64,000 nucleotides of DNA. Source: a virus. The translations under genes were made by a program, and so were the position numbers. Shown here piece by piece: positions 10,082-28,635 of this stretch; the stretch's first letter is position 1; the number at the start of each line of letters is the position of its first letter. The stretch is taken from the IMG/VR virus record IMGVR_UViG_3300045988_159685; one strand, written 5' to 3'. Below the pieces are notes generated by a model. That model was given only the letters and a program-made list of their open reading frames with translations, was not told where the DNA came from and did no database searches.

Positions 10082-10107
10082 ATATAGCCCGTAAAAGCGG
10101 GCATTTT

Positions 10108-10912: not shown

Positions 10913-10941
10913 AATTTCTACCTCCTATTTTTTATAATGGC

Positions 10942-11017: not shown

Positions 11018-11149
11018 ATAGACCGCCGTGGCGGTCAGCATTGTAACCCATGGTTACACAGATTACAATTTAATTACAAAGTGGTGACATAATTCAATCG
11101 ACCGTGTTACTTAAATGTAACTCGCAAGCTTTTTAGCTTGCATTTGAAT

Positions 11150-11190
11150 AAAAAAAATAACGACGGATTAACCAAAGTTGACCCGTCGTT
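11150..11190 (-). terminator. rho-independent terminator (minus strand)
   Basis: The minus strand reads AACGACGG-16 nt loop-CCGTCGTT, then A and T8. Confidence 0.5.
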
Positions 11191-11291
11191 AAATATATAA
11201 AATGGACACTTTTCAGCCTTGTGGATAACCTACGGTCAAGTTATGACGCACCTTAACCAAACTCAAGGGTTTTGTAAAATCTTAATTGTTG

Positions 11292-11370
11292 TGCTTTAAG
11301 ATTTAAGCTTTAGACGATTATAAGCTTTGAACTTTCGTAATTAAATTTTCAGCTTTATGCCTTAAGCTTT
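11292..11370. repeat. five iterated (A/T)AGCTTT(A/G) motifs
   Basis: GCTTT cores start at 11293, 11307, 11324, 11352 and 11366. A related hairpin gcaagct-ttt-agcttgc lies at 11124-11140. Confidence 0.5.
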
Positions 11371-11377
11371 ATCTTAT

Positions 11378-11419
11378 TACTCGTACAGGAATTGAACCTG
11401 TAATGCAACCAGTCGAGCA
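11378..11419 (-). pseudogene. tRNA-like remnant (acceptor + T-arm minihelix, no anticodon arm, no CCA)
   Basis: The minus strand reads TGCTCGA-CTGGTTGCATT-ACAGG-TTCAATT-CCTGT-ACGAGTA. It resembles the 5' and 3' ends of the Glu-like tRNAs. Confidence 0.35.
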
Positions 11420-11581
11420 ACAAAACATTCCCACAAAAAAGGAATATCATATATCTTCGTATAGACTACGATAGCTATTACTTATATTTGAGGCCAGATT
11501 TTTATTATTTTACTTTGTGAATATAGCCTAAAACACAAAGGTCATAAAATTAAAGGTTTTCAAAAAGCACCCATTTTTTGC

Positions 11582-12223
11582 TTAGTACGAAATTTCGATT
11601 TCGGTTATAGCGTTCGATACGCTGATAGCCGAGTCAAAATCAATCTTAAACTTGTCTATACGATCGACAAGGTCAGAAATGATTTCGGCAGTGTCAAAAC
11701 CCTCGATAATTTCAAAAGTGTTCGCCTTTATGAAATTGGTTTTCGCCTCCTCTATTTCCTTTGTAACAGCTTTACCGTCTTTTGAACCAAACATTCCAAG
11801 TACATACTCATCGGCACGCCCCTGTAATGTTTCGCCGTTCTCATAATTACATCTGTCCTGTGCAGCTTTAAGCTGTTTAGACATATGCTTCAAAAGATCT
11901 TCCTCAAATTCAATGCCGTGATTCTTATACTCTATAGCCTCGGCAATAGTCAGTTTCATACCCTGTATTGTGACTTCGGTCTCGGCATTTGAAAGCGTAA
12001 CGGCACGCTTAATTGCCTTACGCCTTTTTATAAGGTCGGCTATTTTGTCATAGCTCGCCTTGAAGCCATTCTTAGCTTCTTCAATAGAGACGCCATTTAT
12101 CTTTGTGTTGCTATGTTTGTTCTCAACCACAAATTTTGCATCTTTGATAAGGGCGGGTATCCTCTTATCGAGAATCTTAAGCTCACAAAGTGCCTGATGA
12201 ATCGTCATTTTTTCGTTAGTCAT
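11582..12223 (-). CDS. hypothetical protein (213 aa, helical/coiled-coil-like)
   Basis: ORF with RBS AAGGAG. Confidence 0.6.
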   Translation of the reverse strand: MTNEKMTIHQALCELKILDKRIPALIKDAKFVVENKHSNTKINGVSIEEAKNGFKASYDKIADLIKRRKAIKRAVTLSNAETEVTIQGMKLTIAEAIEYKNHGIEFEEDLLKHMSKQLKAAQDRCNYENGETLQGRADEYVLGMFGSKDGKAVTKEIEEAKTNFIKANTFEIIEGFDTAEIISDLVDRIDKFKIDFDSAISVSNAITEIEISY

Positions 12224-12277
12224 TTCAAAAACTCCTTTGAATTTTAAAATTTACAGACCTGATTATGCCTGTATTGA

Positions 12278-12337
12278 TGGTGGCTCACACAGGATTTACA
12301 CCTGTACTCTCACTGGGGATAAGAGTCTATTTGAGCC
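12278..12337 (-). pseudogene. 60-nt truncated tRNA-like element (no D-arm), CCA-ended
   Basis: The minus strand reads GGCTCAA-ATAG-ACTCT-(11-nt loop)-AGAGT-ACAGG-TGTAAAT-CCTGT-GTGAGCC-A-CCA. Confidence 0.35.
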
Positions 12338-12390
12338 ATAGCGATGCAAAGCATCGCACTCAGAAAAAGAAGGGAATGCCCAAAACGGGC

Positions 12391-12466
12391 TGGTGACTCA
12401 CGCAGGATTTGAACCATGCAATTCCGCCCTGAGAAGGCGGCGTCTTAACCGTTTGACCAGTGAGCC
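12391..12466 (-). tRNA. tRNA-Glu-like, anticodon CUC (copy B), bulged T-stem
   Basis: GGCTCAC..GTGAGTC-A-CCA. Anticodon stem CCGCC/GGCGG, loop TTCTCAG. The T-arm GCA(T)GG-TTCAAAT-CCTGC needs one bulged nucleotide. Confidence 0.55.
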
Positions 12467-12490
12467 ATAAGGCGGAGAACTCCGCCTATA

Positions 12491-13435
12491 TTACTTTTCT
12501 TTAAAGGTTGGCGAACAGCTCTCAAAGAATTCTTTTACGTTGACATTGTATTTCTCAAGAATCGCAACGATAACTTTTTGTACCTTGTCCCATTCGTCAT
12601 CTTTGATATACTGAATATACGGTGTCTTGCGATTGCCACGCTTTTTGAGGTCAATCCCGTAGCGATAACTAAGCTGCTTATATAGCATACTGAAAGCCAC
12701 GCCGAAACTGATATGCAAAGTCGAAGCAAACTTACGCATAACTCTGTTGAACATTTTGCGGTCTGAAATATGTAAGACCTCGGCTGTTAAAAGCTTGTTT
12801 GACGTTTCAATTCTGTCGATATGACGCCGCTGAAACGCCGTGTAAGCCTGGGCGGCTGTCGCAAATTCCATGATATCACCCGTGGCAAAAGCCTTGCCGA
12901 TTGCCGCTTGGAGCTTTTCTTCGTCGTCGATATCTTGCGTGAGAAGTTCGGGCTTTTCCTCGGCGGTGTGTTCGACAATGTTTAGGAGCTGTGTCCTGAC
13001 CTCTTGGGCTATCTTGCTATCACGAAGAAGCATGCCTATTCTGAGGATGGCACGCTTTGAGAAACACTTGATGCCTCGGTTTGGGATTTCAAGGTGGGTA
13101 TTATCGTCGATTTGGATAACAAGTTTGCCGTTTTGTTGCTCAAAATTCTTAAAGGTACAACTTGTACCTTTAAGAATTTCTTTAAAGATTGTAGGCGTTT
13201 TAGTTGCAACGCCATCACCCTCAATCTCAGTGCGGTTTCGCTGACAACAACGCTTTATAGTATCAATATCAACCTCATAATAATCCGCCACCTGCCTAAT
13301 AGTCATACAGTTCATCTCAGGTATCAAAAGCAGCTTCTTAACCTTATCAAGAACCTCAGTTCTGGCAATAAGCTCGTTTCTGAGGTCATGGTTGTCTACC
13401 ATGCTTTCGCTCGTGATGATTTTACTTTCTGGCAT
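12491..13435 (-). CDS. HTH DNA-binding regulator (antirepressor/Rha-like layout)
   Basis: MTIRQVADYYEVDIDTIKRCCQRN looks like a helix-turn-helix. The central KRAILRIGMLLRDSKIAQEVRTQLLN segment resembles those of Firmicutes phage antirepressor-type proteins. RBS GAGGAGGTG. Palindromic operator-like repeats lie upstream. Confidence 0.5.
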   Translation of the reverse strand: MPESKIITSESMVDNHDLRNELIARTEVLDKVKKLLLIPEMNCMTIRQVADYYEVDIDTIKRCCQRNRTEIEGDGVATKTPTIFKEILKGTSCTFKNFEQQNGKLVIQIDDNTHLEIPNRGIKCFSKRAILRIGMLLRDSKIAQEVRTQLLNIVEHTAEEKPELLTQDIDDEEKLQAAIGKAFATGDIMEFATAAQAYTAFQRRHIDRIETSNKLLTAEVLHISDRKMFNRVMRKFASTLHISFGVAFSMLYKQLSYRYGIDLKKRGNRKTPYIQYIKDDEWDKVQKVIVAILEKYNVNVKEFFESCSPTFKEK

Positions 13436-13496
13436 AATTTCACCTCCTCTTGTAAAACAAATTGAACATCTTGCTTAGTTAGTAACCTAAATTCTT

Positions 13497-13629
13497 AACG
13501 GAACAAGTTGTTCCTTTAAGAAATATCCATCTTTAATGGGATAAGTTGTTCCTTTAAAAGCACTTGAATAGAGTTTAGACTTTTTTGCTATAATGCCATT
13601 TGAACTAACGGAACATCTTGTTCCTTTAG
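13497..13629 (-). promoter_or_regulatory. three operator-like repeats, TAACGGAACA(A/T)(G/C)TTGTTCCTTTA
   Basis: Palindrome GGAACAAGTTGTTCC at 13500-13514 and GGAACATCTTGTTCC at 13610-13624. A half-degenerate copy AAGTTGTTCCTTTAA lies at 13543-13557 and a partial copy at 13463-13476. Confidence 0.55.
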
Positions 13630-13660
13630 TAATTTTTAAAGATATTAAACTTACCTCTGC

Positions 13661-13834
13661 CTAACATTTAAGACTTATAATAACCGCAATCACCGTTATA
13701 ATCAGATTAAGCAGTGCGCCGATCCACAGTGGTGATACCACCCAAAGCCAACTCCAGCATATAACTTTAGTCAGTTTCAGTATGATAAATACGATAGTAA
13801 GCAGTCCGCAAAAACCAATTCCGCCGCTCTTCAT
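13661..13834 (-). CDS. small membrane protein (57 aa, two hydrophobic segments)
   Basis: Below the ORF-track cutoff. Hand translation gives MKSGGIGFCGLLTIVFIILKLTKVICWSWLWVVSPLWIGALLNLIITVIAVIISLKC. Strong RBS AAGGGAGGG. Confidence 0.5.
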   Translation of the reverse strand: MKSGGIGFCGLLTIVFIILKLTKVICWSWLWVVSPLWIGALLNLIITVIAVIISLKC

Positions 13835-13836
13835 AA

Positions 13837-14070
13837 TTATTCTCCCTCCCTTACAATATGAAATTTATCCACGCCGTAAATAACGCCAAGTGAGCGCCCA
13901 TTGTCAAAATTGCAATGAATCGTACCAGCGTCATCGACATGATCAACCGTTCCAAGCGTATTCGGCTCAACTGGGTATGGATCATCAACCATTTTCTCAA
14001 GGCATATTCTTGTACCCTCGGGGAAAACTCTTTTGAGCCAAGATATCCTCTTGTCATTGTATAAACTCAT
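13837..14070 (-). CDS. DUF4314-like protein
   Basis: FPEGTRICLEKMVDDPYPVEPNTLGTVDHVDDAGTIHCNFDNGRSLGVIYGVDKF matches my recollection of the DUF4314 signature (DDPY..P.GT.GTV..VDD.G.IH..WDNGRSL). ATGA start/stop overlap with the upstream gene. Confidence 0.55.
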   Translation of the reverse strand: MSLYNDKRISWLKRVFPEGTRICLEKMVDDPYPVEPNTLGTVDHVDDAGTIHCNFDNGRSLGVIYGVDKFHIVREGE

Positions 14071-14408
14071 ACCTTGCCTCTTTCAAACTCAATAACACCG
14101 CCATCGGCATCAACGACAACTGGGCGAATTGATAGGATATTTCTTGTGAATAAAAACGCACAGGCTAATGGCACGGCAATAACCGCACTCTCGGGCATAG
14201 CTATAGCCATAACGCCCATAGCAAAGCCGAGAACTTTCTGCATAATCCACAACACTTTGGCTGCTTTTCTTTCAAGTCTGCGGCTTTTATAGCTTTCTAT
14301 GCGCTTTTTAAGCTCTCTTTCTTCTTTGTCACGTTCTTCTGCGTGTTTCATAGATCTGATTAACTTTGTCAGGTCGTATGTATTATGTACGTTTTCAAAA
14401 GCGTCCAT
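14067..14408 (-). CDS. membrane protein (113 aa)
   Basis: RBS GGAGGTG. Charged N-terminal helix followed by two hydrophobic segments (VLGFAMGVMAIAM.., VIAVPLACAFLF). Confidence 0.55.
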   Translation of the reverse strand: MDAFENVHNTYDLTKLIRSMKHAEERDKEERELKKRIESYKSRRLERKAAKVLWIMQKVLGFAMGVMAIAMPESAVIAVPLACAFLFTRNILSIRPVVVDADGGVIEFERGKV

Positions 14409-14481
14409 AAAAACACCTCCATTTTAAAATAATAATAATGATTTTCTGATTACGCCTGAAAATCACCATAAAATCTGGCGT

Positions 14482-14557
14482 TGGTGCGACTTATGGGGCT
14501 TGAACCCATGACCTCCGCATTAAAAGTGCGTTGCTCTACTAACTGAGCTAAAGCCGC
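14482..14557 (-). tRNA. tRNA-Lys (anticodon UUU), copy 2
   Basis: GCGGCTT..AAGTCGC-A-CCA. Anticodon loop CTTTTAA with stem ACGCA/TGCGG (one A-G mismatch). T-arm ATGGG-TTCAAGC-CCCAT. Confidence 0.75.
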
Positions 14558-14650
14558 AAGCGCAGGCATCACACTACATTCCCATATGGTGGGATAAGCA
14601 CTGTACCTGCTATGCCAATTTTCTTTTTGTGTAGCATTGGCAAACTACAC

Positions 14651-14737
14651 TGGTGCCGCTGACGAGACTTGAACTCGTAAGGATTTTACTCCGAGGGTTT
14701 TTAAGACCCTTGTGTATGCCTATTCCACCACAGCGGC
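14651..14737 (-). tRNA. tRNA-Leu (anticodon UAA), type II with long variable arm
   Basis: GCCGCTG..CAGCGGC-A-CCA. Anticodon stem AGGGT/ACCCT, loop CTTAAAA, variable arm CGGAGTAAAATCCTT, T-arm ACGAG-TTCAAGT-CTCGT. Confidence 0.85.
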
Positions 14738-14847
14738 TTGTCTTGCCCACAACCCACAGAAGGCAAGTAATGTACGGCTCATCCGTACTTCCCTACGTAT
14801 TCAGCGACTGATGCCACCGATGCGCGTCTAAGGACTGCGACGTCCTT

Positions 14848-14922
14848 TGGTGACTCGTGCAGGATTCAAACCTACGACTCCGCTCTGAGAAAGCGGTATC
14901 TTAATCACTTGACCAACGAGCC
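14848..14922 (-). tRNA. tRNA-Glu-like, anticodon CUC (copy C), T-loop TTTGAAT
   Basis: GGCTCGT..ACGAGTC-A-CCA. Anticodon stem CCGCT/AGCGG, loop TTCTCAG. T at the position-56 equivalent instead of C. Confidence 0.55.
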
Positions 14923-15220: not shown

Positions 15221-15697
15221 TTAGGTCTCTTTATTAATTTGTGATTCTACAACGAAATACTCTCTTGCGTCTTCGTAGTTCTTGGCCATTTTTATAATTT
15301 CATCGTCTCGCTTCTGAAGTAACGCTCTTCTTTTTTCAGCAAGTTCTTTGTCATTGTAGTAACCAAGAAGGGAATATTCCCCATACTTGCCAAGAGAGAA
15401 CAGCACATAGGCTGTCGTGGCGCTATCATCTACTTCGATTTCGTCAAAGTGGATGGCTGTGTTTTCATAGTCATCACTGTCAAACAGGTCATTTTCGATA
15501 ATCCAATTATTGGTTTTTTCGATACTTTCGACCTGCTCTCTTGCCACCTTGATAGCTACTTCTTTTGAAGTATATATGCCAATCAAGGCATATTCGGGGT
15601 ATAAATGCCATGAAGAATCAACCTTCATAACAACATATAACTTTTGACTTTCTTGGTTGCTTTCGCAAGAAGTTTCGATTGTAAATTTTGTCAACAT
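15221..15697 (-). CDS. hypothetical protein (158 aa, weak internal duplication)
   Basis: RBS GAGGAGG. Segments YALIGIYTSKEVAIKVA and YSLLGYYNDKELAEKRR suggest two repeats. Confidence 0.55.
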   Translation of the reverse strand: MLTKFTIETSCESNQESQKLYVVMKVDSSWHLYPEYALIGIYTSKEVAIKVAREQVESIEKTNNWIIENDLFDSDDYENTAIHFDEIEVDDSATTAYVLFSLGKYGEYSLLGYYNDKELAEKRRALLQKRDDEIIKMAKNYEDAREYFVVESQINKET

Positions 15698-17197: not shown

Positions 17198-17227
17198 AAT
17201 AGAACCCTCCAATAAAATTTAATTTTT

Positions 17228-17290
17228 GAGCTTTAAAGCCCTATTCAAGCCCACGAGCGACTACTCATGAGCTTTATATAAAGCTTTAAA
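17228..17290. repeat. three AGCTTTA motifs upstream of the first minus-strand operon
   Basis: AGCTTTA at 17229, 17270 and 17282. Same core as the 11292-11370 iterons. Confidence 0.4.
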
Positions 17291-17396
17291 CCGCCTTGCT
17301 TAATTCAAGACAGCTCAAAGAATTAGCCTACTTTTTTTGTGATTGAATTGTACGGCAAGCTTGCGTACTGCAAAGGCATACAGTTACCTTTACTCC

Positions 17397-17420
17397 ACGG
17401 GGCATCACGCCCGTTTTTTT
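17397..17420 (+). terminator. terminator-like hairpin + T7 on plus strand in ORF-free region
   Basis: ACGGG-GCATCACG-CCCGT followed by TTTTTTT. No annotated plus-strand gene lies upstream. Confidence 0.4.
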
Positions 17421-18365
17421 GCTCAGTCGGCTCTTGCTATTCCAACACCCTAGGGGATGCGACTTTACTGCGCTGTCGTCAGGGTATAGCTCGCCCGTAA
17501 AAATACAGGGTCATCGCCGATACTCGCTGAAATTTCAAGCAAGGTCTGAGCTAATTCAATCTATGCTACACTTTTAACCATGAACGGCTCAGCGGTCTGT
17601 TCTCACAGCTCACGGCTCTATCATCTCTGATAGGCATATGTGAGTGCTTTACTGCTCGAATGATATAGTTATAGTTTTTTCAAGATACTGGAGTTTAAAG
17701 AGTTCACGCTCTATGCTACTACATATCACAGGGCTTGATATTTGCTGTGGGTCACTGTATTGTGTAACCCCTTGCCCTGTTGACAATGATAGTATAAGCT
17801 ATATTGAATTAAAAGTCAATAGCTTTTTTGAAAATATTTAAAATGCAAAAATGACTTTTTATTATAAAAAGGAAGCAAGGACTAAATGCAAGCTATTTCG
17901 ATAAGCTTGCATGAGGGGGTTAATAAAAAATATTTTTGTGCCCAGAACGCCGAAGAATCAAAGAGTAACACCATCTTTCACATCCGCCCTATTTTCGCAA
18001 TCTTTTCTTCCGCTCCCCTCCCCTTTTTCATCCACGCATCGTCACTTTTGCAAAAAATGCGATTCTTTGTAATGCAAGCTTTTAGGCTTATGAACGCAAG
18101 GTTTTTTGGTGACGCCCCCGAAAGAAAGCTTGTATTTCGCACATTTGTAAACTTTTTGTGAACGCATTTCTCAAAGGCATAAGCATTTAACGCCGACTTA
18201 ATCCGCCGCCAGAAAGCGACACGCAACCGTGGCGCCGTTTCAGCCCCAACGATCAATCTGAGTCCCATCCTGCAATCGTGCGCTCAGCACGCTTCGTACT
18301 TGCGCTTAATAGATTTATGCCTTAAATATAATTGTCAAAAAACGCATAGATATTTTCTAAAAAGC

Positions 18366-18394
18366 TTGACATTTAGCCAAAAATGGTGTATAAT
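18366..18394 (+). promoter_or_regulatory. consensus sigma70/sigmaA-type promoter
   Basis: TTGACA (18366-18371), 17-nt spacer, TATAAT (18389-18394). It lies 52 nt upstream of the recombinase ATG. Confidence 0.7.
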
Positions 18395-18446
18395 ATGTAT
18401 ATAAGGATAAGGGTGATAAACCCCGTAGATAAAAGGAGATAGACAT

Positions 18447-19235
18447 ATGAGACATTACAAAATCAAGCACGCCCAGCAGGTATTCAGTGGTTCGACCGCC
18501 CCAAAACTTAAGTGCAACGTTATCGACATTGGCGACGCTGTAAAACCAAAGCGACCCGAAATTGAGAAGCGTCCACGCAACAATTCACCGTACACCTCAC
18601 ATGGCAAACCCAAGGCAACCCCTGGCGATCCAATTCGAGACATGGCGGATATTCAAAAGGCAAAAGAGTTCTTGCTCAACAACGGTAAGACTAGACGCAT
18701 CAGACTTCGTAACTACATGTTCTTCACCCTTGGCATTTCAACGGGACTCCGTGGTGGCGACTTAGTTAAAATCAAGATTGGCGATGTGATTACTGAGGGC
18801 GGTAGATTTAAAAGCTATATCAGCTTGTTCGAGGAAAAGACCTCTAAACACAACAATCCAAAGCTTAATTCATCATGCCGTGAAGCAATCAAGACATATC
18901 TCGACTACATCGGCGACTACTCCCTTGAAGACTATCTGTTCAAATCCGAGAAAGGCGGTTGTCTTGACCAATCACAAATCTATAGAATCATTCATTCGCT
19001 TCAAACCGACCTTGGGCTACCATACCACTTGAGCGCACATAGCCTCAGAAAGACCTTTGGCTACTGGACAATAAAGATGCACCCCGACGATTCAAGAGCT
19101 CTTGTGACACTCCAGAGAATGTTAAATCACGATTCACCCGAGACTACACTGATTTACTGCGGAATAACTCAAGACGACAAAGACGCATTCTACGATGACA
19201 TGGATACACTGTTCGATGAGGCTACAACCATATAA
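18447..19235 (+). CDS. short tyrosine recombinase (catalytic domain only, no SAM-like N-domain)
   Basis: GLRGGDLVKIKIGDV (Arg I), HSLRKTF (HxxR), LNHDSPETTLIY (H..Y). RBS AAAGGAGA. Confidence 0.8.
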   Translation: MRHYKIKHAQQVFSGSTAPKLKCNVIDIGDAVKPKRPEIEKRPRNNSPYTSHGKPKATPGDPIRDMADIQKAKEFLLNNGKTRRIRLRNYMFFTLGISTGLRGGDLVKIKIGDVITEGGRFKSYISLFEEKTSKHNNPKLNSSCREAIKTYLDYIGDYSLEDYLFKSEKGGCLDQSQIYRIIHSLQTDLGLPYHLSAHSLRKTFGYWTIKMHPDDSRALVTLQRMLNHDSPETTLIYCGITQDDKDAFYDDMDTLFDEATTI

Positions 19236-19537: not shown

Positions 19538-19619
19538 AAGAAAAAAAGAAAAGAAAGAAGCAAAGAAAAGAAATAAAAGAATTATTATATATTATAATAT
19601 ATATATATATATATATTAA
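19538..19619. repeat. ~45-nt polypurine tract followed by (TA)n-rich tract
   Basis: aagaaaaaaagaaaagaaagaagcaaagaaaagaaataaaagaa, then ttattatatattataatatatatatatatatatatta. Confidence 0.8.
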
Positions 19620-19655
19620 TTCTTAAATCACTAGATTTATCTAGTGATTTAAGAA
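19620..19655. repeat. perfect 17-bp inverted repeat with 2-nt spacer
   Basis: ttcttaaatcactagat-tt-atctagtgatttaagaa. Confidence 0.9.
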
Positions 19656-19713
19656 GAGACAATAATCTAGTATTATAACTATTCTTGAATAATAAATATA
19701 AGATTATTGTCTC
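19656..19713. repeat. 13-bp inverted repeat flanking a 32-nt AT-rich spacer
   Basis: gagacaataatct ... agattattgtctc, followed by a second polypurine stretch (19714-19755). Confidence 0.85.
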
Positions 19714-19806
19714 TAAAAGAAAGAATAAATAAGAAAGAAAAGAATTGAATCAATGCCAATATCTTTCAAACCCATTTGACGGTTAAGACCAATAAAGGAG
19801 AAAGAT

Positions 19807-22530
19807 ATGGCATTAAACAAATTATACTATGTGTACGGACTTGATACTGCGTGCCTTTATACACCAGAGGAAAGTGCTATTGAACAAAAAATTATCAAGG
19901 CACGTTGCCTTCGAGCTACGCTCAAAGACAGAATTGCCAAACAAAAGATAACCCCTTGTCTTTGTAAAGGTAAAAAAACTATAGCAAACAAAGACAACAA
20001 AGCCCCATACGTTGGAAAACATCAGAAGCGTCTGCGTTTTCTCAACGATTACATAGCCAGTCATAAAGCATTACTTAAGCAGGAGCTTGCCAAAAATGTA
20101 TCACTCACACGAACCGTGATACCTGACAAGCTCAATATACGTCGCCAGATTTCAATATTTGGCTCTTCCCTTACAAGATATTTCAACCTAAAGGAAAGAG
20201 AGCTTAATGAAGAAATCGTGATTGTAAAAGTTTACTTCTTCGATGTCGCCAAGAGCATTGTGAAGAACGGCTTTTACATGAATGGTCACAAATACGTTTT
20301 CTTCTCAAGTAGTGCGGGGCAAATCAGAACCAAAAAGCTCGTGGCCGTTCGTGAAGATTTACTCAACAAGTATTGGAACGCATTGACGGCAGGCTTGACA
20401 ATTGAAAAGATTAATGAGCAAGGCGGCATGAATGTAAATAAATTTCTTGCCTACCTTGCTCTTTGTAATTCAGCTACTGATTTATGGTGTGACTTCAACA
20501 TTGACGAGTGTATTGTAGTTGACGACTTTGAAACGCTTGTGCATGGTACGGTTGACTTTATAGACGATAAGACCTATAGGATTGAAAGACAAGAAATGAA
20601 TATACCGATCACGCACACCGATGGCTGTGGAATGATACTTCCAGAACTGAGTACAAAAAATTTCATGACAAGATTGCCATGGGTCAAAGGTCTGCTAGCA
20701 AGTTTTGACTTTGTGAAGTTTATCAAGGATAATAATTGCGACCCCGTGATTACTGACGTCTACGGCGATAAGCATAATATCCTTGAGGAAAATATCAAAA
20801 TCATATTTACCAAGAGTCAGTTCAAAATGTGGAAATATTATTCAAACTGGGGTGAATATAAAAACAACTTCAAGAAATATGGAAGCACCGCAGGCAAGTG
20901 TAACATAGAAGAAGGATATATCCCATATGCAACGATCAACTACCAAATGATACAGACACTAATTGATACCACTGACAATGAGATAGCCGCACTTGCTCGT
21001 AAGAGCATGAACGATATTCGCAATCTCGCAACCGATAAAGCAACAATGCTCAAGGTTTTCGGAGCTACAAGCTACAACAAAAATATGAACGGCTTTCAAA
21101 AATGTCTTAAGTTATATCCCGAGCTTTTATCAGACCCATATTCTCGTGCCGCCCTTAAAGACATCAAACATAGCCTTGAGACAGATCAGTGGGCGGCCAA
21201 ATTCAAAACAAGCGGTAAATACACGTTTGTTGTTCCAGACCTTTATGCGTTCTGTGAATATTTATTCTTACATATATCAAATCCTAAAGGACTTTTAAGC
21301 AACGGTGAAGTAAGTTGCAAACTGTTCAAAGATAATATTGAGCTTGATTGTTTACGTTCGCCGCACCTCTACATCGAACATGCCATAAGAACAAATCGTC
21401 ATGTTGACAGTTGGTTTAATACAGATGCAATCTATACAAGTTGTGCCGACTGTATATCGAAAGTTTTGCAGTTCGACAACGACGGTGATAAACTATTGGT
21501 GATTCCAGATGAAACACTAATAAACCTTGCTAAACGAAACTTGCAAAAGTATGACATAGTACCGCTCTTCTATAACATGGCTAAGGCGGGGGCAAAAGAA
21601 CTTACTCCCGATAGCCTGTATGATGGATTAATATGTGCCTACACTGGTGGCAATATTGGCGAAATAAGCAACGCCATTACCAAGGTTTGGAATAGCGGAG
21701 TAATCGACCAAGAAAAAATCAATGTTGTTAAATGGCTTTGTATGGAAAATAACTTCGTCATAGACTACGCCAAGACCTTGTATAAACCCGTTCGTCCTGA
21801 TTGGGTAAACGAAATTATTTCTAAGCACGTCAAGAGCAGAGTTCCACATTTCTTTCAATATGCTAAAGGCAAAGAAACCAATCAAGTAGAAGAAAGAGGT
21901 TTAAACACGGTTGACAGAATTAAGTCGTTGACCCCTATACAAAAGCTTAACTTTAATTTTAAGAACGACAATGTTGGAAAGTTTGATTATAGATTTCTGC
22001 TAAAAAACAAAGAAATTGAAGTCGATGAGAATGTGCTTCAACGCTTTAGGGATATATCAAGCAATCTAAGGTTTTGTGACTCAGATGGAACGGCACTTAA
22101 CTACCAAGCCGTATACGATCAAGCGAAAGAAGAAATGCTTATGCTCGGTCATAACATTGACGATGTTGTAGATATGCTTGTAGAGGATTTATTTCACAGT
22201 AGACGTGTTGAAAAGAAAAAAGCATTTTGGGAAATGTTTGGCGAAGTTGTGTACGAACATTTGTCGAACAATTTATCACAAAATTATATCCAGTGTGCTC
22301 ACTGTCAGAAAAGATTTTATCGTGAAAACTCGAAACAAATTTACTGCAACAAATGTCAAAACAAGAAGTCCATCAAAGCAAATACCAAGATTCTTCAATG
22401 TGCAGGTTGCGGCAAAACCATAACAGTAAGTACAAGATGTCATCGTGAAGCCTACTGCCCTGAGTGTAAAATTCATGCAAGAAATGCGGCAAGACTGAGG
22501 GCGTATTATAAAAATAAGCATCTTGTGTAG
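19807..22530 (+). CDS. YonO/RdRP-like single-subunit two-barrel RNA polymerase (putative) with C-terminal Zn-ribbons
   Basis: 907 aa, RBS AAAGGAGA. FFSSSAGQIRTKK (aa 165-177) resembles the cellular-RdRP/YonO F.FS.SQLR block. CLRSPHLYIEHA followed ~40 aa later by QFDNDGDKL (D557-D561, nt 21475-21489) parallels beta-prime RAPTLHRLGIQAF..NADFDGDQM. The C-terminus carries CAHC..CNKC and CAGC..CPEC. Confidence 0.6.
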   Translation: MALNKLYYVYGLDTACLYTPEESAIEQKIIKARCLRATLKDRIAKQKITPCLCKGKKTIANKDNKAPYVGKHQKRLRFLNDYIASHKALLKQELAKNVSLTRTVIPDKLNIRRQISIFGSSLTRYFNLKERELNEEIVIVKVYFFDVAKSIVKNGFYMNGHKYVFFSSSAGQIRTKKLVAVREDLLNKYWNALTAGLTIEKINEQGGMNVNKFLAYLALCNSATDLWCDFNIDECIVVDDFETLVHGTVDFIDDKTYRIERQEMNIPITHTDGCGMILPELSTKNFMTRLPWVKGLLASFDFVKFIKDNNCDPVITDVYGDKHNILEENIKIIFTKSQFKMWKYYSNWGEYKNNFKKYGSTAGKCNIEEGYIPYATINYQMIQTLIDTTDNEIAALARKSMNDIRNLATDKATMLKVFGATSYNKNMNGFQKCLKLYPELLSDPYSRAALKDIKHSLETDQWAAKFKTSGKYTFVVPDLYAFCEYLFLHISNPKGLLSNGEVSCKLFKDNIELDCLRSPHLYIEHAIRTNRHVDSWFNTDAIYTSCADCISKVLQFDNDGDKLLVIPDETLINLAKRNLQKYDIVPLFYNMAKAGAKELTPDSLYDGLICAYTGGNIGEISNAITKVWNSGVIDQEKINVVKWLCMENNFVIDYAKTLYKPVRPDWVNEIISKHVKSRVPHFFQYAKGKETNQVEERGLNTVDRIKSLTPIQKLNFNFKNDNVGKFDYRFLLKNKEIEVDENVLQRFRDISSNLRFCDSDGTALNYQAVYDQAKEEMLMLGHNIDDVVDMLVEDLFHSRRVEKKKAFWEMFGEVVYEHLSNNLSQNYIQCAHCQKRFYRENSKQIYCNKCQNKKSIKANTKILQCAGCGKTITVSTRCHREAYCPECKIHARNAARLRAYYKNKHLV

Positions 22531-22550: not shown

Positions 22551-22593
22551 ATCCCCGTAAACGACGTATCTACGTTGTTTGCGGGATTTTTTT
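22551..22593 (+). terminator. rho-independent terminator after the RNAP-like gene
   Basis: 15-bp stem CCCGTAAACGACGTA / TACGTTGTTTGCGGG followed by T7. Confidence 0.7.
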
Positions 22594-22745
22594 GTATATA
22601 AATTTCAAAAAATTACACCCCTTATGGAGAGGAAAAGTCAATATACAAAGAACGGGCTGTCCTACGCTAGCGTTATAATCTTATCAAGTGCGCAGTTATA
22701 AGTTAGGATATATCTCCAAAAATATAGAACAAAAGGATTAGATAA

Positions 22746-22919
22746 ATGATTGAAATTAACAAGTGGGAAGAAAAACAATTAAGAAAGACCATACCGAACC
22801 TGTGCGTTGCAAGAACTGGTAAAAGTAAAAAAGCAAAGCGTGGTAAAATATATGCTGAGCCTACACGCAAGGTGTTATCTACGCTAAAACGGATTCGTGA
22901 AGTTGACTACATCAACTAA
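22746..22919 (+). CDS. small basic protein (57 aa)
   Basis: Hand-translated as MIEINKWEEKQLRKTIPNLCVARTGKSKKAKRGKIYAEPTRKVLSTLKRIREVDYIN. RBS-like AAAGGA. Below the ORF-track cutoff. Confidence 0.4.
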   Translation: MIEINKWEEKQLRKTIPNLCVARTGKSKKAKRGKIYAEPTRKVLSTLKRIREVDYIN

Positions 22920-22936
22920 GGGCAAATGGTGGATAT

Positions 22937-24124
22937 ATGAGTTATAAATATCAACGTTATGAAAATGAAAGCCCCGAAGAATTGATATTCAGGATCTGTA
23001 GTCACAAAAATGAAATTGGTACATGGAGCGACGTAGGTAGGGTGTTGAACGAATTACTTGGTGAAAACTATACCGAGTCTGCTTACCGCAAAAAATATCA
23101 GAGCTTTGAAAAAATGTTCTCAGGCAATCAGAAACTGTTTTCTGATAATGAAGAAGTCTTATCGGAAATATCAGAGCAAAGACGTGAGCTTGAAAAAGAA
23201 AAGATTAAATTCCGTGATGAAAGAAACGCTTGGAACAAACAGAACCGCATTGCGGCAAGAACTGAACAAAAATTAGATTATCTTGAAGAACAGCTTGTCT
23301 CCATGGGTAAAGTGAATTTTAGCAATCATACCACACCTGTAACAGTTAGAGGTAATTCAGATTTGCTTATTACAATTAGTGATATTCACTATGGACTTAA
23401 TTACAACAATTACTTTGGGACGTATAATTCTGACATATGCAAAAACTATCTTGCTAAATATCTCGAAAAGATTATAAGCATTGGATCACGTCATAAGGCA
23501 AGAAATATTCACGTCGTAATGTTAGGCGATATAATTTCTGGCTCAATACATAAGTCGATTCAAATTGCTAACCGCGAAAATGTCATAGAGCAGATTAAAG
23601 GCGTGTCTGAGTTATTGAGTTCATTCGTATATGAACTGTCGAATCATTTTGCAAAAGTCACAGTCACAAGCGTATCAGGAAATCATTCGCGTCTTGACAA
23701 AAAAGATGAAGCACTTCATGACGAAAGACTCGACGACATCGTTTCGTTCATAATGGAAAAGTCATTAAGCAATGTTGACAATATCAGTTTTCAAACTTAC
23801 TACAATTTTGATACAAGCATAGCAAGTATTAAGATATGCGGCAAATTGTATTTCCTTGTACACGGTGACTATGATACACCAAATGAGACAGGCGTAATGC
23901 GCCTATGTAGTATGGTTGGAAACATCCCGTATGCAATAATCATGGGTCATAGACATTCGGCGGCGTACAATGAAATCAACGGGATTGTTATTGTGCAAAG
24001 CGGTTGTTTGTGCGGAAGTGGCGATGACTATACGATACAAAAGCGTCTTAGTGGTTTGCCGAGTCAGACAATTTGTGTATGCTCCGAACATGGCATAGAT
24101 TGTATGTACCCAGTGAAATTTTAG
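22937..24124 (+). CDS. calcineurin-like metallophosphoesterase (SbcD/Mre11-like core) with coiled-coil N-terminal region
   Basis: Motifs ISDIHYG (DxH), MLGDIISG (GD), SGNHSR (GNH), LVHGD and IIMGHRHS (GHxH), in canonical order. Confidence 0.75.
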   Translation: MSYKYQRYENESPEELIFRICSHKNEIGTWSDVGRVLNELLGENYTESAYRKKYQSFEKMFSGNQKLFSDNEEVLSEISEQRRELEKEKIKFRDERNAWNKQNRIAARTEQKLDYLEEQLVSMGKVNFSNHTTPVTVRGNSDLLITISDIHYGLNYNNYFGTYNSDICKNYLAKYLEKIISIGSRHKARNIHVVMLGDIISGSIHKSIQIANRENVIEQIKGVSELLSSFVYELSNHFAKVTVTSVSGNHSRLDKKDEALHDERLDDIVSFIMEKSLSNVDNISFQTYYNFDTSIASIKICGKLYFLVHGDYDTPNETGVMRLCSMVGNIPYAIIMGHRHSAAYNEINGIVIVQSGCLCGSGDDYTIQKRLSGLPSQTICVCSEHGIDCMYPVKF

Positions 24125-24274
24125 CACACTCAATAATCTGTATGGGCAATCAAAAAAATAAATATTCATTGAAGACTTATAATCTTCATGATTACACCAG
24201 GAACCCAACACGCCTCCTAGCAGTGCGTACCACGTTGGGTCTTTAAATTAATTTAGAATGTGAGGAAAAATAAA

Positions 24275-24553
24275 ATGGTAAAGAAAGATATTATAACAGC
24301 CGTATCAAAGAGAACTGGCTTTACAAGAGAAAATTCTGAGGCTGCTATTAATGCAGCAATTGCGGCAATCGTTGACGCTATCAAATCAAATGAGGAAGTA
24401 AGAATTATGGAGCTTGGAAAACTTGAGCCAGTTGTTAGAGCGGCACGCAATAGACATAATCCAAAGACTGGTGAGAAGATATTTGCTCCAGCCTACAAGA
24501 GTTACAGATTCAAGATGAATTCTGTGCTCAAGGATTTTGTCAGAAACAACTAA
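24275..24553 (+). CDS. hup: HU/IHF-family DNA-binding protein
   Basis: MVKKDIITAVSKRTGFT..AAINAAI..VRIMELGKLEPVVRAARNRHNPKTGEKIFAPAYKSYRFKMNSVLKD aligns by eye along the whole length of bacterial HU. ATG 24275 follows GAGGAAAA. Confidence 0.85.
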   Translation: MVKKDIITAVSKRTGFTRENSEAAINAAIAAIVDAIKSNEEVRIMELGKLEPVVRAARNRHNPKTGEKIFAPAYKSYRFKMNSVLKDFVRNN

Positions 24554-24601
24554 TTATAGCATATTCAAATCTCCTTTTCAGTGTCTTAATATTGACAGAT
24601 A

Positions 24602-24624
24602 GAGGACGGCAATAGTCGTCCTTT
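24602..24624 (+). terminator. weak terminator-like hairpin after HU gene
   Basis: AGGACG-8 nt loop-CGTCCT followed by TTT. Confidence 0.35.
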
Positions 24625-24628
24625 ACAT

Positions 24629-24704
24629 TGCGGAGTAGAGAAAAGGTATCTCGCTTGTTTCATAGGCAAGAGATTATTGGTTCGAGTCCAATCTCACGCA
24701 ACCA
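24629..24704 (+). tRNA. tRNA-Met/Ile2-like (anticodon CAU) with a bulged A in the acceptor stem
   Basis: Hand fold: TGCGGAG-TA-GAGA-AAAGGTA-TCTC-G-CTTGT-TTCATAG-GCAAG-AGATT-ATTGG-TTCGAGT-CCAAT-CTC(A)CGCA-A-CCA. All arms are canonical except the extra A on the 3' acceptor strand. Confidence 0.5.
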
Positions 24705-24774
24705 ATTGGGGTACGGTTTATGAGGTTTTGTAGACCCATAAAAACAAAACCTAAAATGAAAGAAAGGAGACGCT

Positions 24775-25791
24775 ATGTCAAAGGTATCAAAACTTCCGCC
24801 TGTTACGCAGGAAGAGTGGAACAAAGTAAACGACTTTAACAAATTTATATTTGAAGATTTTATAACGAACAGCACAGAGCTATCGCCTAAAACAAAAATT
24901 GCTTATGAGTCAAATTTAAAAATTTGGTTTATTTGGGTCAAAGATAATCTTAATAACAAATCTCAGATCGACATTAAACCTTTAGACTTTAAGCGTTTTC
25001 AAAACTGGATGGTCAACCGTGGTTGTTCAAGTGCAGATTGTGCAAACAAAAGAGCGGCAATTAGCTCGCTTAATAATTACATAGATGTTTACTATAGGGA
25101 CGATTATCCACAATTTCGCAATTTTATTAATAAGAGTATAGCACGACCGCCAAAGGCTTTTGTAAATGAGAAGCAACCACTGACGAAAGAGGAATTTGCA
25201 AATCTTATTTCTGTTCTCGAAAAACGTGGTGATTGGCAAAAGGTTGCCTATCTTAAATTTACATTAGATACAGGATGTCGCCGTGCTGAGAGCATACAAG
25301 TGAAAAAGGATTTTGTAAACATCAAGCCGACCATAAAACACAAAACCCATATTGACGAAAATGGTAACGAAGTAACAAAAGAGATTAAGTATTATGTTAC
25401 CCCTACTATTCGTTGTAAAGGAAAGGGTACGGTTGGTAAAGAAAGAAAGTTTAAATTCTCACAGGATACAATGGATGCATTTAAGAAGTGGATTGAAGTT
25501 AGAGGTGAAGACGATTGCCCAGACATGTTTATTTCTAAATATGCCGGAAAAGTAAAAGGCATAGCAGAGAACACGTTAAACAATTGGGCTACTCATGTAT
25601 TTACACCTATCGTCGGCAGACGCTTTCATCCGCATCTTCTAAGAGAGTCTAAGGCAACTCAGCTTGCAGTCGAAGAAGGAAAAGACATTTCTGTAATCCA
25701 AAGTCTATTAGGCCACGAGTCATCAGAAACTACACAAATTTATATAATCCGTGACGAAACCGATGACCTCGACGAGTTGTTTGAAGAGTAG
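24775..25791 (+). CDS. tyrosine recombinase/integrase (XerC/D-like, with SAM-like N-domain)
   Basis: TGCRRAESIQV (Arg I), HPHLLRES (HxxR), LGHESSETTQIY (H..Y). RBS AAAGGAGA. Confidence 0.8.
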   Translation: MSKVSKLPPVTQEEWNKVNDFNKFIFEDFITNSTELSPKTKIAYESNLKIWFIWVKDNLNNKSQIDIKPLDFKRFQNWMVNRGCSSADCANKRAAISSLNNYIDVYYRDDYPQFRNFINKSIARPPKAFVNEKQPLTKEEFANLISVLEKRGDWQKVAYLKFTLDTGCRRAESIQVKKDFVNIKPTIKHKTHIDENGNEVTKEIKYYVTPTIRCKGKGTVGKERKFKFSQDTMDAFKKWIEVRGEDDCPDMFISKYAGKVKGIAENTLNNWATHVFTPIVGRRFHPHLLRESKATQLAVEEGKDISVIQSLLGHESSETTQIYIIRDETDDLDELFEE

Positions 25792-25799
25792 GTGACGGT

Positions 25800-26855
25800 A
25801 TGGGAAGACAAAAACAATCGTTATCTAAGAGACCGTCAGTTGCTACAAAAGAAAGCAAAAAAGAGCCTAAGACTAAAAGTATAGTCGAAGAACGTGAAAA
25901 AGTAATGACTCCTGAAAAGAAAGAGTACCGATATACATGTCTTTCTTGTCATTGCAGTGCAAACAATCCTGTAAACTTTCCTATTTCATACAGTGTTATA
26001 TATGCTGGCAACGATCACCGCCTGCCATATTGTCGTGATTGTTTAAACGCTATGTGGGCCATTGTCGCAAAAGATTATTCAGATTATCAGGACATTTACC
26101 GCAGGATTTGTATGTACTTCGATATCTATTATAATGCAGAAGTAGCCGAGATAGCTTATAAAGAATCTGAGAGTGAAAAACGTGTTTCAAGATATATCAC
26201 AAAAATAAATCGTTATCCATATAGCAACAAAACTTACCAAGATACAATTAAAGAAGATATGTCTAAAAGGCATACAGAAAATTTCGATGGATTGTATGAA
26301 CCAATAGAGAAAACTGTTCCTCATGAAATCATTGACTTTTGGGGAGCTGGATTGGAAAGTGCTTCTGATTATCAAGAACTACAGGCTTCTTATGAAAAGT
26401 GGAATTCAGAGGTCGAGTGTTCAAAGCCTTCGCAAAGAATTTTAATTAAACGAATTTGTTTCAATGAGCTTAAAACTCATAAAGCAATGATTGCGGGAGA
26501 CGACACTACTAAGCTTACCGACGAACTCAACAAATTACTTGATAGTGCAAAGCTACAGCCAAAACAGGTTAAAGATGTTTCAATAGCCGACGAGAATACA
26601 TTTGGAACACTTATAAAGAAATGGGAAGATGAAGAACCAGTTCCAGAACCGCTCCCTGAGTTTAAGGATGTTGACGGTATTATAAAATATATTAGCGTTT
26701 GGTTCTACGGGCATCTTGCAAAAATGTTTGGCAAAAGAAACAAATGGGGAAAACTTTACAACGACGAAGTTTCAAAATATACAGTTACTCCACCTGAGTA
26801 TAATTCCGAAGATGATGACATAGACTTTGAGTCAATCTTTGGTGCAGATGAGTAG
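25800..26855 (+). CDS. putative terminase small subunit / packaging accessory protein with Zn-ribbon
   Basis: Assigned by its position immediately upstream of terL. Basic N-terminus, CLSCHC..CRDC cluster, acidic C-terminus. Confidence 0.35.
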   Translation: MGRQKQSLSKRPSVATKESKKEPKTKSIVEEREKVMTPEKKEYRYTCLSCHCSANNPVNFPISYSVIYAGNDHRLPYCRDCLNAMWAIVAKDYSDYQDIYRRICMYFDIYYNAEVAEIAYKESESEKRVSRYITKINRYPYSNKTYQDTIKEDMSKRHTENFDGLYEPIEKTVPHEIIDFWGAGLESASDYQELQASYEKWNSEVECSKPSQRILIKRICFNELKTHKAMIAGDDTTKLTDELNKLLDSAKLQPKQVKDVSIADENTFGTLIKKWEDEEPVPEPLPEFKDVDGIIKYISVWFYGHLAKMFGKRNKWGKLYNDEVSKYTVTPPEYNSEDDDIDFESIFGADE

Positions 26856-26865
26856 GTGATACTTT

Positions 26866-28635
26866 ATGATGGTTGATAAAGTATACACTCAGGATAAAAC
26901 TATGCAGACGGTAATTGAACGTGCCGCTTATTATAGGGCAAACCCACATAGGTTTGTCAAAGATTATTTGGGCATTGATTTACGATTGTTCCAAATGATT
27001 TTAATAGTCATGATGAACTTTAATACAAATTTTATGTATCTTGCCAGTAGAGGTCAAGGCAAAACCTTTCTATGCGCTATATTTTGTTGCGTTAGATGTA
27101 TCTTGTACCCTGGCACCAGAATTTGTATTGCTTCTTCTAAACGTGCACAAGCGTGTGAAGTATTGGAAAAAATTATGACGATATTCTATCCTAATTCCGC
27201 TAATTTGCGAAACGAGATAGAAGTTTATAAAAATAACAACACTGAGAATTATATAAAATTCCATAACACCTCAATGATAAAGGTTGTTACCGCAAGTGAC
27301 AGTGCTCGTTCCAATCGAGCTAACATCCTTATAATTGACGAGTTTAGAATGGTAGACCAAACTATCATTGCAACTGTACTGAAGAAATTCTTGACCGCTG
27401 AACGTGAGCCCGGATTTCTTAATAAGGATAAATATAAAAAGCTCAGAAGCACCGATATCGCTCAATATAATAAGTACAAAGAGCGTAATAAAGAAATGTA
27501 TTTATCCTCGGCGTATTATAAAAAACATTGGTCATGGGAAAAGACTAAGACATATTGTGCGGCAATGTTGGACGATAAGCGCAGCTATTTCTTATGTGGA
27601 CTCCCCTACCAACTATCAATTAAAGAGGGTATATTAAATGCGGAACAAGTAGCCGACGAAATGTCTGAGGCAGATTTCTCACAGATAATTTGGGACATGG
27701 AAAGTGGATGTTTGTGGCATGGTGAAAGTGACGACGCATTATTTAGCTATTCAAGTTTGATAGATGCCAGGGCTATAAAGACTGCTTTTTATCCACATTC
27801 GGTAACAGACTATTACCCAGCTTTGAAGAACCCAACAAAGAAAAATGGTGAGATTAGAGTTCTTGCTGTGGACATCGCCGTTATGGCGTCGAAGAAAAAT
27901 AAGAACGATGCAACAGCTATTCATATATTGCAATTACTTCCAACTAGCAATAGCCAGTATATTAGAAATTTAGTATATTCCGAAAACTTTGAAGGCGGTC
28001 ACTCTGAAACACAAGCAATTACAATAAGGCGCCTATTTGAAGATTTGGAATGTGACTACATTGTTATAGATACGAACGGCGTTGGTAATGGCGTATATGA
28101 TGAGTTGGTCAAAGATTTGGTCGATCCTGTTACGGGTGAACTATATCCTGCCTTTACTTGTATGAATGACGAAGCAATGGCGGAAAAATATAAGGGTTCT
28201 TCACGCAACCCAAGAAAAGTTATCTATAGTATTAAGGCAAGCGCAAAGTTCAACAGTGATTGTGCATACCTGCTTAAAGATAATTTAATGCGTGGAAAGA
28301 CAAGACTGTTAATTAACGAAAAGGATGCCGACGATATTTTAAAGCAATCCAAAACATTTAGGGGTTTGGACGAAGAAATAAAAGCGAACATCCTTATGCC
28401 ATATATACAAACTGCCCTGCTGGTTAATGAACTGGTCAATCTGAAATATGAAACAAACGGCAGTTTGATTAAGATTATGGAACGTGGAAACGAAAGAAAA
28501 GACCGATATTCTGCGCTAGCTTATGGTAATTATTTTGCCACCGAGTTAGAGAGGACTATCGTAAAACACAAAAAAGCAAAGCTAAACGACAATTTCATTT
28601 TTGAATTTAGAGCGCCGTCTTTGCGTACAAGTTAG
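26866..28635 (+). CDS. terL: terminase large subunit
   Basis: Walker A ASRGQGKT, Walker B ANILIIDEF, and C-terminal RNaseH-like nuclease Asp blocks (LAVDIAVM, IVIDTNGVGNGVYDE). Confidence 0.8.
   Translation: MMVDKVYTQDKTMQTVIERAAYYRANPHRFVKDYLGIDLRLFQMILIVMMNFNTNFMYLASRGQGKTFLCAIFCCVRCILYPGTRICIASSKRAQACEVLEKIMTIFYPNSANLRNEIEVYKNNNTENYIKFHNTSMIKVVTASDSARSNRANILIIDEFRMVDQTIIATVLKKFLTAEREPGFLNKDKYKKLRSTDIAQYNKYKERNKEMYLSSAYYKKHWSWEKTKTYCAAMLDDKRSYFLCGLPYQLSIKEGILNAEQVADEMSEADFSQIIWDMESGCLWHGESDDALFSYSSLIDARAIKTAFYPHSVTDYYPALKNPTKKNGEIRVLAVDIAVMASKKNKNDATAIHILQLLPTSNSQYIRNLVYSENFEGGHSETQAITIRRLFEDLECDYIVIDTNGVGNGVYDELVKDLVDPVTGELYPAFTCMNDEAMAEKYKGSSRNPRKVIYSIKASAKFNSDCAYLLKDNLMRGKTRLLINEKDADDILKQSKTFRGLDEEIKANILMPYIQTALLVNELVNLKYETNGSLIKIMERGNERKDRYSALAYGNYFATELERTIVKHKKAKLNDNFIFEFRAPSLRTS

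Follow-up and report, generated by a model that had tools for sequence, protein, structure and literature searches.

A stretch of viral DNA of 64,000 nucleotides (IMG/VR record IMGVR_UViG_3300045988_159685; the whole stretch is called the window, and positions are counted from its first letter) carries on its plus strand, at 19807-22530, an open reading frame (ORF) with an ATG start that specifies a protein of 907 amino acids. Homology and structure prediction indicate that this gene very probably encodes an orthologue of SPbeta YonO, i.e. a single-chain, two-barrel RNA polymerase (RNAP) whose predicted activity is DNA dependent. YonO, a single chain of roughly 100 kDa with two double-psi beta-barrels, is distant kin of the beta/beta-prime core of cellular RNAPs and of the eukaryotic RNA-dependent RNA polymerases (RdRPs). 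It belongs to an enzyme class that was predicted in 2003-2010, is the simplest known relative of the universal multisubunit RNAP and serves as a model for the single-chain ancestor of the latter. A direct BLASTP comparison of the window protein with SPbeta YonO gave 378 identities in 858 positions (44%), 63% positives and E=0. When about 50,700 phage records were searched in six frames (tblastn), full-length matches at ~44% identity and E=0 were obtained with yonO of SPbeta (SPBc2), with all SPbeta-like Bacillus phages and with Clostridium phage D-1873, the match to SPbeta YonO covering 94% of the query. A preliminary description of the window had proposed a YonO/RdRP-like two-barrel polymerase here; the ORF of 907 residues and every motif listed for it were found exactly where it had placed them, and the proposal is supported by the homology to YonO, the Pfam RdRP profile, the predicted fold and the synteny described below.

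The Pfam RdRP profile (PF05183) matched the protein at 49.9 bits (curated cutoff 23.8; E 2.7e-13) over residues 133-282 and a second stretch, and PHROG 8308 (function unknown) aligned with it from end to end (E 1e-236). RNA_pol_Rpb1/Rpb2 domains of Pfam were not found in the protein, nor was a T7-type polymerase domain seen in it with Pfam, PDB or Foldseek. SPbeta YonO itself (yonO at 11983-14499 of the SPbeta record, L001) was not detected by the Pfam RdRP model at E<=0.1. As the same model finds the window protein at E 2.7e-13, Pfam-based annotation misses the founding member of the family. The family is extensive: a word-indexed search returned more than 3,700 matches, and an exhaustive search yielded 1,150 clusters (50% identity, E<=1e-3), 332 of them with E<=1e-30. 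Given this size, and given the biochemical characterisation of YonO in 2017, the enzyme as such is no novelty; it belongs to the already characterised YonO class. The earlier statement that polymerases of this sort are seldom annotated holds only in part, since homologues already bear the name 'yonO: DNA-directed RNA polymerase' or 'RNA-dependent RNA polymerase' in several phage records of GenBank.

The residues expected of the active site were located in an alignment of 117 homologues, SPbeta YonO and the protein of Clostridium phage D-1873 among them. The catalytic Asp triad DNDGD (D557, D559 and D561; residues 557-561, nt 21475-21489) sits in QFDNDGDKLLVI (residues 555-566), and D557, D559, G560 and D561 were invariant in 117/117 sequences, so that a loss of the triad among homologues, named beforehand as an argument against a polymerase, was not observed. 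R517, which lies 40 residues before D557 as the preliminary description had it, belongs with P519 to the R-x-P motif of barrel 2, CLRSPHLYIEHAI (residues 515-527, nt 21349-21387), in which R517, S518, P519, L521 and E524 did not vary in any homologue. A further signature, D272-G-x-G275 ... R289 ... K294-G295 (residues 272-295, nt 20620-20691), probably supplies the fourth Asp and the basic pair of barrel 1; D272, G273, G275, R289, P291, K294 and G295 were again common to all 117. Since these motifs are invariant throughout the alignment, YonO included, they are not due to chance.

Eight residues are invariant in two-barrel RNAPs, and the listed equivalents comprise R446/P448 of Rpb1 and R962/P964, D709 and R738/K743 of QDE-1 (PMC2919709). 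By motif pattern and spacing, D272, R289, K294, R517, P519, D557, D559 and D561 match these eight, and the distance of 5 between R289 and K294 (R-x4-K-G) equals that between R738 and K743 of QDE-1. The preliminary description had assigned the second barrel to another block, YVFFSSSAGQIRTKKLVAV (residues 163-181, nt 20293-20349). This block is homologous to the 'FS.SQ.R' block of RdRPs, falls within the Pfam RdRP match at residues 133-282 and is well conserved (S169, G171, Q172, I173, R174, K176 and K177 in 117/117); in the AlphaFold2 model it forms a beta-hairpin (strands 161-168 and 177-182) N-terminal to a cluster of strands at 235-299. Its conservation therefore stands, whereas it is probably not the catalytic segment of barrel 1, which judging from the sequence pattern is most likely formed by D272, R289 and K294.

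Pairs of CxxC begin at residues 830, 847, 865 and 884 and make up two C-terminal Cys4 ribbons, both of which had been regarded as additions to the fold. This was correct for one of them. Zinc ribbon 1 (C830/C833/C847/C850; 22294-22356), modelled by AlphaFold2 with short strands at 827-829 and 836-838, belongs to the family architecture because its Cys residues are invariant in 117/117 homologues, including those of SPbeta and D-1873. Zinc ribbon 2 (C865/C868/C884/C887; 22399-22467), with modelled strands at 860-864 and 871-875, occurs together with a terminal helix in about 107 of the 117 closest homologues and is absent from SPbeta YonO and from the D-1873 protein; as read from the alignment, it is a lineage-specific addition.

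The predicted structure agrees with this assignment. AlphaFold2, given an alignment of 71 sequences, produced a confident model of the window polymerase, with a mean predicted local distance difference test score of 89.5 and a predicted template-modelling (TM) score of 0.82. When it was compared with PDB by Foldseek, the sole significant matches were RDR2 of maize and Arabidopsis (E 3.5e-19 to 6.6e-12, TM 0.42-0.51, ~760-900 columns), at a sequence identity of 12-14%. The two-barrel RNAP gp96 of phage P23-45 came next, weakly (E about 1e-2), and bacterial beta-prime chains were not significant (E 0.5-5, all above 0.4; TM below 0.1). No primase, helicase or structural protein was matched in PDB, and the fold check suggested in the preliminary description thus ended on two-barrel RdRPs as best matches. 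Among predicted viral structures (BFVD) the best matches were metagenomic phage proteins annotated as RdRP (E 2.7e-34). That list also contains a protein that, judging from its UniProt accession, probably belongs to Bacillus phage 0305phi8-36. A structure of YonO was not detectable in PDB by sequence, and the family profile gave only non-significant zinc-ribbon matches among PDB sequences (e.g. RpoP/Rpb12, E 0.17-0.6) and no residue-level alignment with RDR2 or QDE-1. A single chain with two double-psi beta-barrels is supported by the confident model and by its matches to two-barrel RdRPs.

The name of the Pfam family and the plant RDR2 matches could suggest an enzyme that copies RNA, for example in antisense or silencing-like functions, and homologues in Psychrobacillus phage Perkons and Enterocloster phage PMBT24 are indeed annotated 'RNA-dependent RNA polymerase'. 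With the eukaryotic RdRPs (PF05183; RDR2, QDE-1) the window protein shares the two-barrel architecture and the DxDGD, R-x-P and DGxG...R....KG signatures. It differs from them in its bacterial-virus context and in sharing only those 12-14% of residues, and N-terminal additions of the eukaryotic RRM type were not detected in it. YonO is the one close relative that has been characterised; it has a strong preference for DNA templates and is needed for late-gene transcription (Forrest et al., 2017; PMC5467207). The position of the window gene at the head of a late operon in a double-stranded DNA phage fits a transcriptase. An RNA-copying role is accordingly regarded as extremely improbable. With P23-45 gp96 and the beta/beta-prime subunits of multisubunit RNAP, the DNA-dependent polymerase proposed here shares the superfamily, by its active-site logic; unlike bacterial beta-prime, to which it has no significant sequence or fold match, it is a single chain with both barrels. 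The likeness to T7-type systems is one of function only, a phage-encoded, host-independent polymerase for late genes, the protein fold being unrelated.

Three points weigh against this identification. The residues of barrel 1 were assigned from motif pattern. Template specificity and the dependence of the late genes are extrapolated from YonO across 44% identity. Finally, the window protein has Gly at position 119 (nt 20161-20163), where 111 of the 117 homologues, YonO included, have Asp or Glu; the position falls in a conserved F-[DE]-S-x-L-T-R motif and Gly is also present in the 99%-identical relatives, and it is not among the eight invariants of two-barrel RNAPs.

The genomic position of the gene was examined together with its neighbours. 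Both ORF orientation and GC skew switch from a minus-strand to a plus-strand arm at about 17-18 kb, which places the polymerase gene at the head of the plus-strand arm. The first late-arm genes behind it span 22746-28635, all on the plus strand. They begin with an ORF of 57 residues, after which come a YonJ-like metallophosphoesterase (22937-24124; Pfam, and 20% identity to SPbeta YonJ in tblastn), an HU/YonN-like protein (24260-24553; Pfam, 37% to YonN), a tRNA gene (24630-24700), a YomM-like tyrosine recombinase (24775-25791; Pfam, 30% to YomM, E 8e-48), a YonG-like protein (25800-26855; 33% to YonG) and a YonF-like large terminase of 589 residues (26866-28635; 48% to YonF, the TerL of SPbeta). 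The Pfam domains YonJ_N, YonG_N/C and YonD_N were found on the corresponding genes of public contigs that are 99% identical to the window. The window order, yonO, terminator, YonJ, HU/YonN, YomM, YonG and terminase, matches the late-gene module of SPbeta. An order of yonO, HU, YonK/J, YonG, terminase and portal was shared by about 30 of the 72 loci compared, which come from genomes of Bacillus, Paenibacillus, Lachnospiraceae, Oscillospiraceae and other groups, and also by 8 contigs whose polymerase is 55-60% identical to that of the window. The gene had been placed beforehand at the head of the late arm, upstream of the packaging, head and tail genes, and this agrees with the YonJ-like, HU, YonG-like, terminase and structural genes found behind it. 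The claim that the window holds no other transcription enzyme likewise held for what was scanned: no sigma-factor or RNAP domain of Pfam appeared in 30 other ORFs, a set in which the structural ORFs of the middle late arm are not all included.

YonO of SPbeta is a processive RNAP that depends strictly on DNA. In SPbeta, deletion of yonO abolishes plaque formation and silences 37 late genes that form one operon; the Asp triad of YonO is essential, a 3D>3N mutant being catalytically dead, and the promoter was left undefined by the authors (Forrest et al., 2017; PMC5467207). The YonO-family polymerase of the window might have a different job, such as early or middle transcription or priming. Sigma-70-like matches occur throughout the late arm at the chance rate (68 found between 24 and 44 kb, 68.9 expected), which leaves room for host promoters, and the window phage shares just part of the SPbeta gene set. 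On the other hand, the order from yonO to terminase is conserved in those roughly 30 loci from distant hosts, a strong terminator separates yonO from the late genes, a good intergenic plus-strand sigma-70 site was not found between 22.6 and 43 kb, and late transcription is the role shown for YonO in SPbeta. A different job is thus judged highly unlikely, and late transcription is retained as the predicted role. The chance-level count is compatible with the earlier assertion that the late genes lack host-type promoters but does not prove their absence.

Comparison of the two phages showed the following. Full-length homology, catalytic residues, the first Cys4 ribbon, a terminator right after the gene, the neighbours HU/YonN, YonJ, YomM, YonG and the terminase YonF, and the location at the head of the late arm are common to both. 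The window protein is 68 residues longer than SPbeta YonO, it has the second Cys4 ribbon and the C-terminal helix that YonO lacks, and Gly119 replaces an acidic residue. The HU gene follows YonJ in the window rather than the polymerase directly, a homologue of YonP or YonK was not detected beside the window polymerase, and the window is without the 1.7-kb non-coding leader that SPbeta has between yonN and yonK; homology of this leader to any region of the window was not found. The SPbeta leader is described as containing an unannotated non-coding RNA (Forrest et al., 2017; PMC5467207). It also holds a DUF3800-VIII RNA motif (RF03075; L001 16384-16449, 47.5 bits vs 40.2) that has no counterpart in the window.

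Directly 3' of the polymerase gene lies an intrinsic terminator (22554-22595, plus strand) with a 14-bp stem (22554-22585) containing 7 GC pairs, followed by the T-run ATTTTTTTGT; stem-loops are annotated at the same place after yonO in SPbeta. Just beyond it a conserved element was recognised on the plus strand at 22606-22656, from relatives, a position weight matrix (PWM), nhmmer and k-mer counts, and it is a candidate for the late promoter. In the window it reads CACCCCTTATGGAGAGGAAAAGTCAATATACA, with the core TTATGGAGAGG. In the window and all 8 close relatives (55-60% amino acid identity) the element lies 50-90 nt beyond the stop codon of yonO, a short way past the terminator, and the next ORF is more than 100 nt further on. 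In most relatives a strand-specific element is present 50-200 nt after the stop of yonO.

Several counts bear on this placement. With a leave-one-out PWM the window site scored 18.1 and ranked first on both strands of the 64 kb, the maximum in 20 shuffles being 17.1. In 29 of 68 independent loci on which the matrix had not been trained, the best coding-strand match within 1 kb of yonO lay 30-200 nt after the stop (expected fraction 17%, p 7e-7). A 6-mer count that presupposes no motif found TAAGGG in 33/76 post-yonO regions, compared with 7/76 reverse complements and 0/72 matched upstream regions (p 3e-12). The 14 significant matches of the nhmmer profile all lay on the coding strand, 75-130 nt downstream of the stop of yonO; SPbeta (E 7.5e-11) was among them, as was the window (E 3.5e-7), which had itself been part of the training set. 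In a two-fold cross-validation of 45 sites selected by regular expression, the site ranked first in its own locus in 26 cases and among the top three in 33.

The general form of the element is TAAT-n-G-yC-ty-TAAGGGAG. Gut clostridial lineages, including that of the window, have the variant TAT(A/T)TGGA(G/A)AG; in the window clade the form is ACCCyTAtwGGArAG (at 22606-22656). The general PWM, dominated by Bacillus and Paenibacillus, does not rank the window site first; because the core of the window clade is of this variant kind, it is the 8 close relatives that lend support to the window site. The form taken in some relatives (...TCACTATAGGGG... or ...TAATCGTCATAAGGGAGA) resembles the T7 promoter TAATACGACTCACTATAGGGAGA, a likeness that may be coincidental.

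Each phage has a single copy of the element, on the coding strand; this holds for the window as well as for the scanned 76 kb of SPbeta. The element accompanies yonO and not the downstream gene, which varies (HU, or a small ORF with YonJ/K), and in loci where HU abuts yonK/J it is the sole conserved non-coding element ahead of the whole late block. These features suggest that the post-yonO element may be a late promoter of the YonO class. The strong and single copy in SPbeta (copy A, L001 14608-14660) speaks against this, as it is situated between the yonO and yonN genes, some 650-900 nt ahead of L001 15285-15528, the interval that the published primer-extension primers bracket downstream of yonN. 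Within that interval just a weakly similar repeat was found, copy C (GGATAATAGTCATTTATGAGGGT, 15401-15443), which shares GATAAT-n-GTCAT with copy A and is 80% identical to copy B over 25 nt. Because the strong SPbeta copy falls outside the published start-site interval, the promoter assignment from sequence conservation is put forward tentatively. The fuller proposal, that minimal two-barrel RNAPs of the YonO class would recognise the element without a sigma factor and initiate at its G-run, is slightly more doubtful still.

There is a little better than an even chance that the element is no promoter of the phage polymerase and that the true late promoter is at another place; the element would then be a site bound by some factor, a sequence associated with the terminator, or a 5'-leader or processing signal. 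Apart from the position of the SPbeta copy upstream of yonN, this would explain why in some clades conservation extends 30-40 nt past the core (GCTAAT..TACA, TAAAGGG), which is unusual for a simple promoter; the purine-rich core moreover resembles a ribosome-binding site. As to the last point, 27 of the 29 sites counted above are not followed by an ORF start. This count, together with a gap of more than 100 nt to the following ORF in the window clade, led to the rejection of a Shine-Dalgarno sequence. RNAalifold revealed no conserved RNA fold in the element or in the leader downstream (0 pairs in both clades), and no Rfam family matched the element even at permissive thresholds, neither of which favours a leader or processing signal. 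Association with yonO instead of the variable downstream gene, a single coding-strand copy directly past the yonO terminator, and its standing as the sole conserved non-coding element before the late block where HU abuts yonK/J also argue for a promoter.

From these data the following course of events can be envisaged. After infection or induction the polymerase gene would be transcribed early by the host RNAP from the palindrome-rich region upstream of it, and this early transcript would end at the strong terminator 22554-22595. In the late phase the phage polymerase, with D557, D559 and D561 holding the catalytic Mg2+, would transcribe the plus-strand packaging, head and tail genes as one long operon, independently of the host enzyme; this step is taken from homology and synteny with SPbeta, where it was demonstrated experimentally. 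Transcription might, on the tentative promoter assignment, start at the element 22606-22656, which closely follows the terminator and precedes the first late ORF by about 110 nt.

The window has the whole SPbeta-type late-transcription module (polymerase, HU, YonJ, YomM, YonG and terminase) in an uncultivated, probably gut-clostridial phage, which extends the known range of the module and adds no new principle. What could add new knowledge is only the candidate element of ~25-50 nt after most yonO genes, which makes the undefined promoter of YonO testable in vitro. If it is a promoter, orthogonal polymerase/promoter pairs would become available for the engineering of Gram-positive bacteria, and the variant core and additional zinc ribbon of the window lineage would make this lineage an example of a pair that diverged naturally.

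Upstream of the polymerase gene, sequence scans revealed a putative control region at 19587-19714. Behind a (TA)n tract come a perfect 17-nt palindrome (TTCTTAAATCACTAGAT/ATCTAGTGATTTAAGAA) at 19620-19655 and a second, 20-nt inverted repeat at 19655-19714, and a sigma-70-like site (19649-19676) overlaps the inverted repeats. The palindromes, about 100-200 nt ahead of yonO, may be an operator region, and such a layout would suit transcription of yonO by host RNAP under the control of a repressor. The two Logan contigs that share 99% identity with the window are both broken within this region. As they end ~200 bp upstream of yonO and a tyrosine recombinase adjoins, an invertible switch was suspected; it was ruled out, the breaks falling in the (TA)n tract and palindrome (19587-19655) with no long inverted repeats flanking them.

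The recombinase in question is a short protein of 262 residues encoded directly upstream of the polymerase gene (region 18366-19235), whose catalytic set (R, HxxR, H...Y) seems to be intact. At 18366-18394 it is preceded by TTGACA-17-TATAAT, a perfect sigma-70 consensus. Its similarity to YomM was not detectable; homologues are present upstream of yonO in L009, L025, L050, L055, L079 and L081. Exactly where the two arms diverge, the window has 1.2 kb without a convincing ORF (17213-18446), for which neither similarity to other loci nor an Rfam match was found. Relatives have ORF-free stretches of 1-2.5 kb at the equivalent place, and the pac site or genome opening point of SPbeta-like phages is located in the corresponding gap, between yonR and yonP.

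Elsewhere in the late arm, the YomM-like recombinase gene (24775-25791) is kept at the same place, between HU and YonG, in L050, L077, L079, L081 and L083. Just upstream of HU the sibling contig L075 has a marginal abiF RNA motif (4596-4632; 38.0 bits, gathering score 37), which corresponds to about 24203-24239 of the window, where the sequence stays below threshold. Eight tRNA genes were detected in the window, seven of them clustered on the minus-strand arm (9851-14922) and one inside the late operon, that at 24630-24700. The minus-strand early arm also encodes an HNH endonuclease and a protein with a ParB N-terminal domain, at 2479-2904 and 10361-10912, and most of its other ORFs have no Pfam match.

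The closest named relatives of the window phage are metagenome-assembled genomes of gut clostridia (Oscillospiraceae, Lachnospiraceae), and 405 nt of the window match a phage contig from human faeces at 98.8%; a near-identical genome of the window phage was not found. A gut clostridial bacterium, and not Bacillus, is the probable host. The large-terminase gene, intact in the window, carries a clean 304-nt insertion (L075 7445-7748) at window position 27054/27055 in the 98-99%-identical contigs L075 and L076. It follows about codon 63, is not a multiple of three and splits the call into 63 and 527 residues; no Rfam family, group I introns included, matched it. In many relatives yonO too is interrupted, by insertions of 0.3-1.3 kb, so that it matches in 2-3 pieces (L047, L050, L052, L057, L067, L073 and L074, and the phage records phi3T, SPR, Goe11/14 and BUCT083). 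The group I intron models of Rfam gave no match in the three such loci scanned, L047, L050 and L073. In one phage record a GIY-YIG nuclease is annotated beneath the yonO match.

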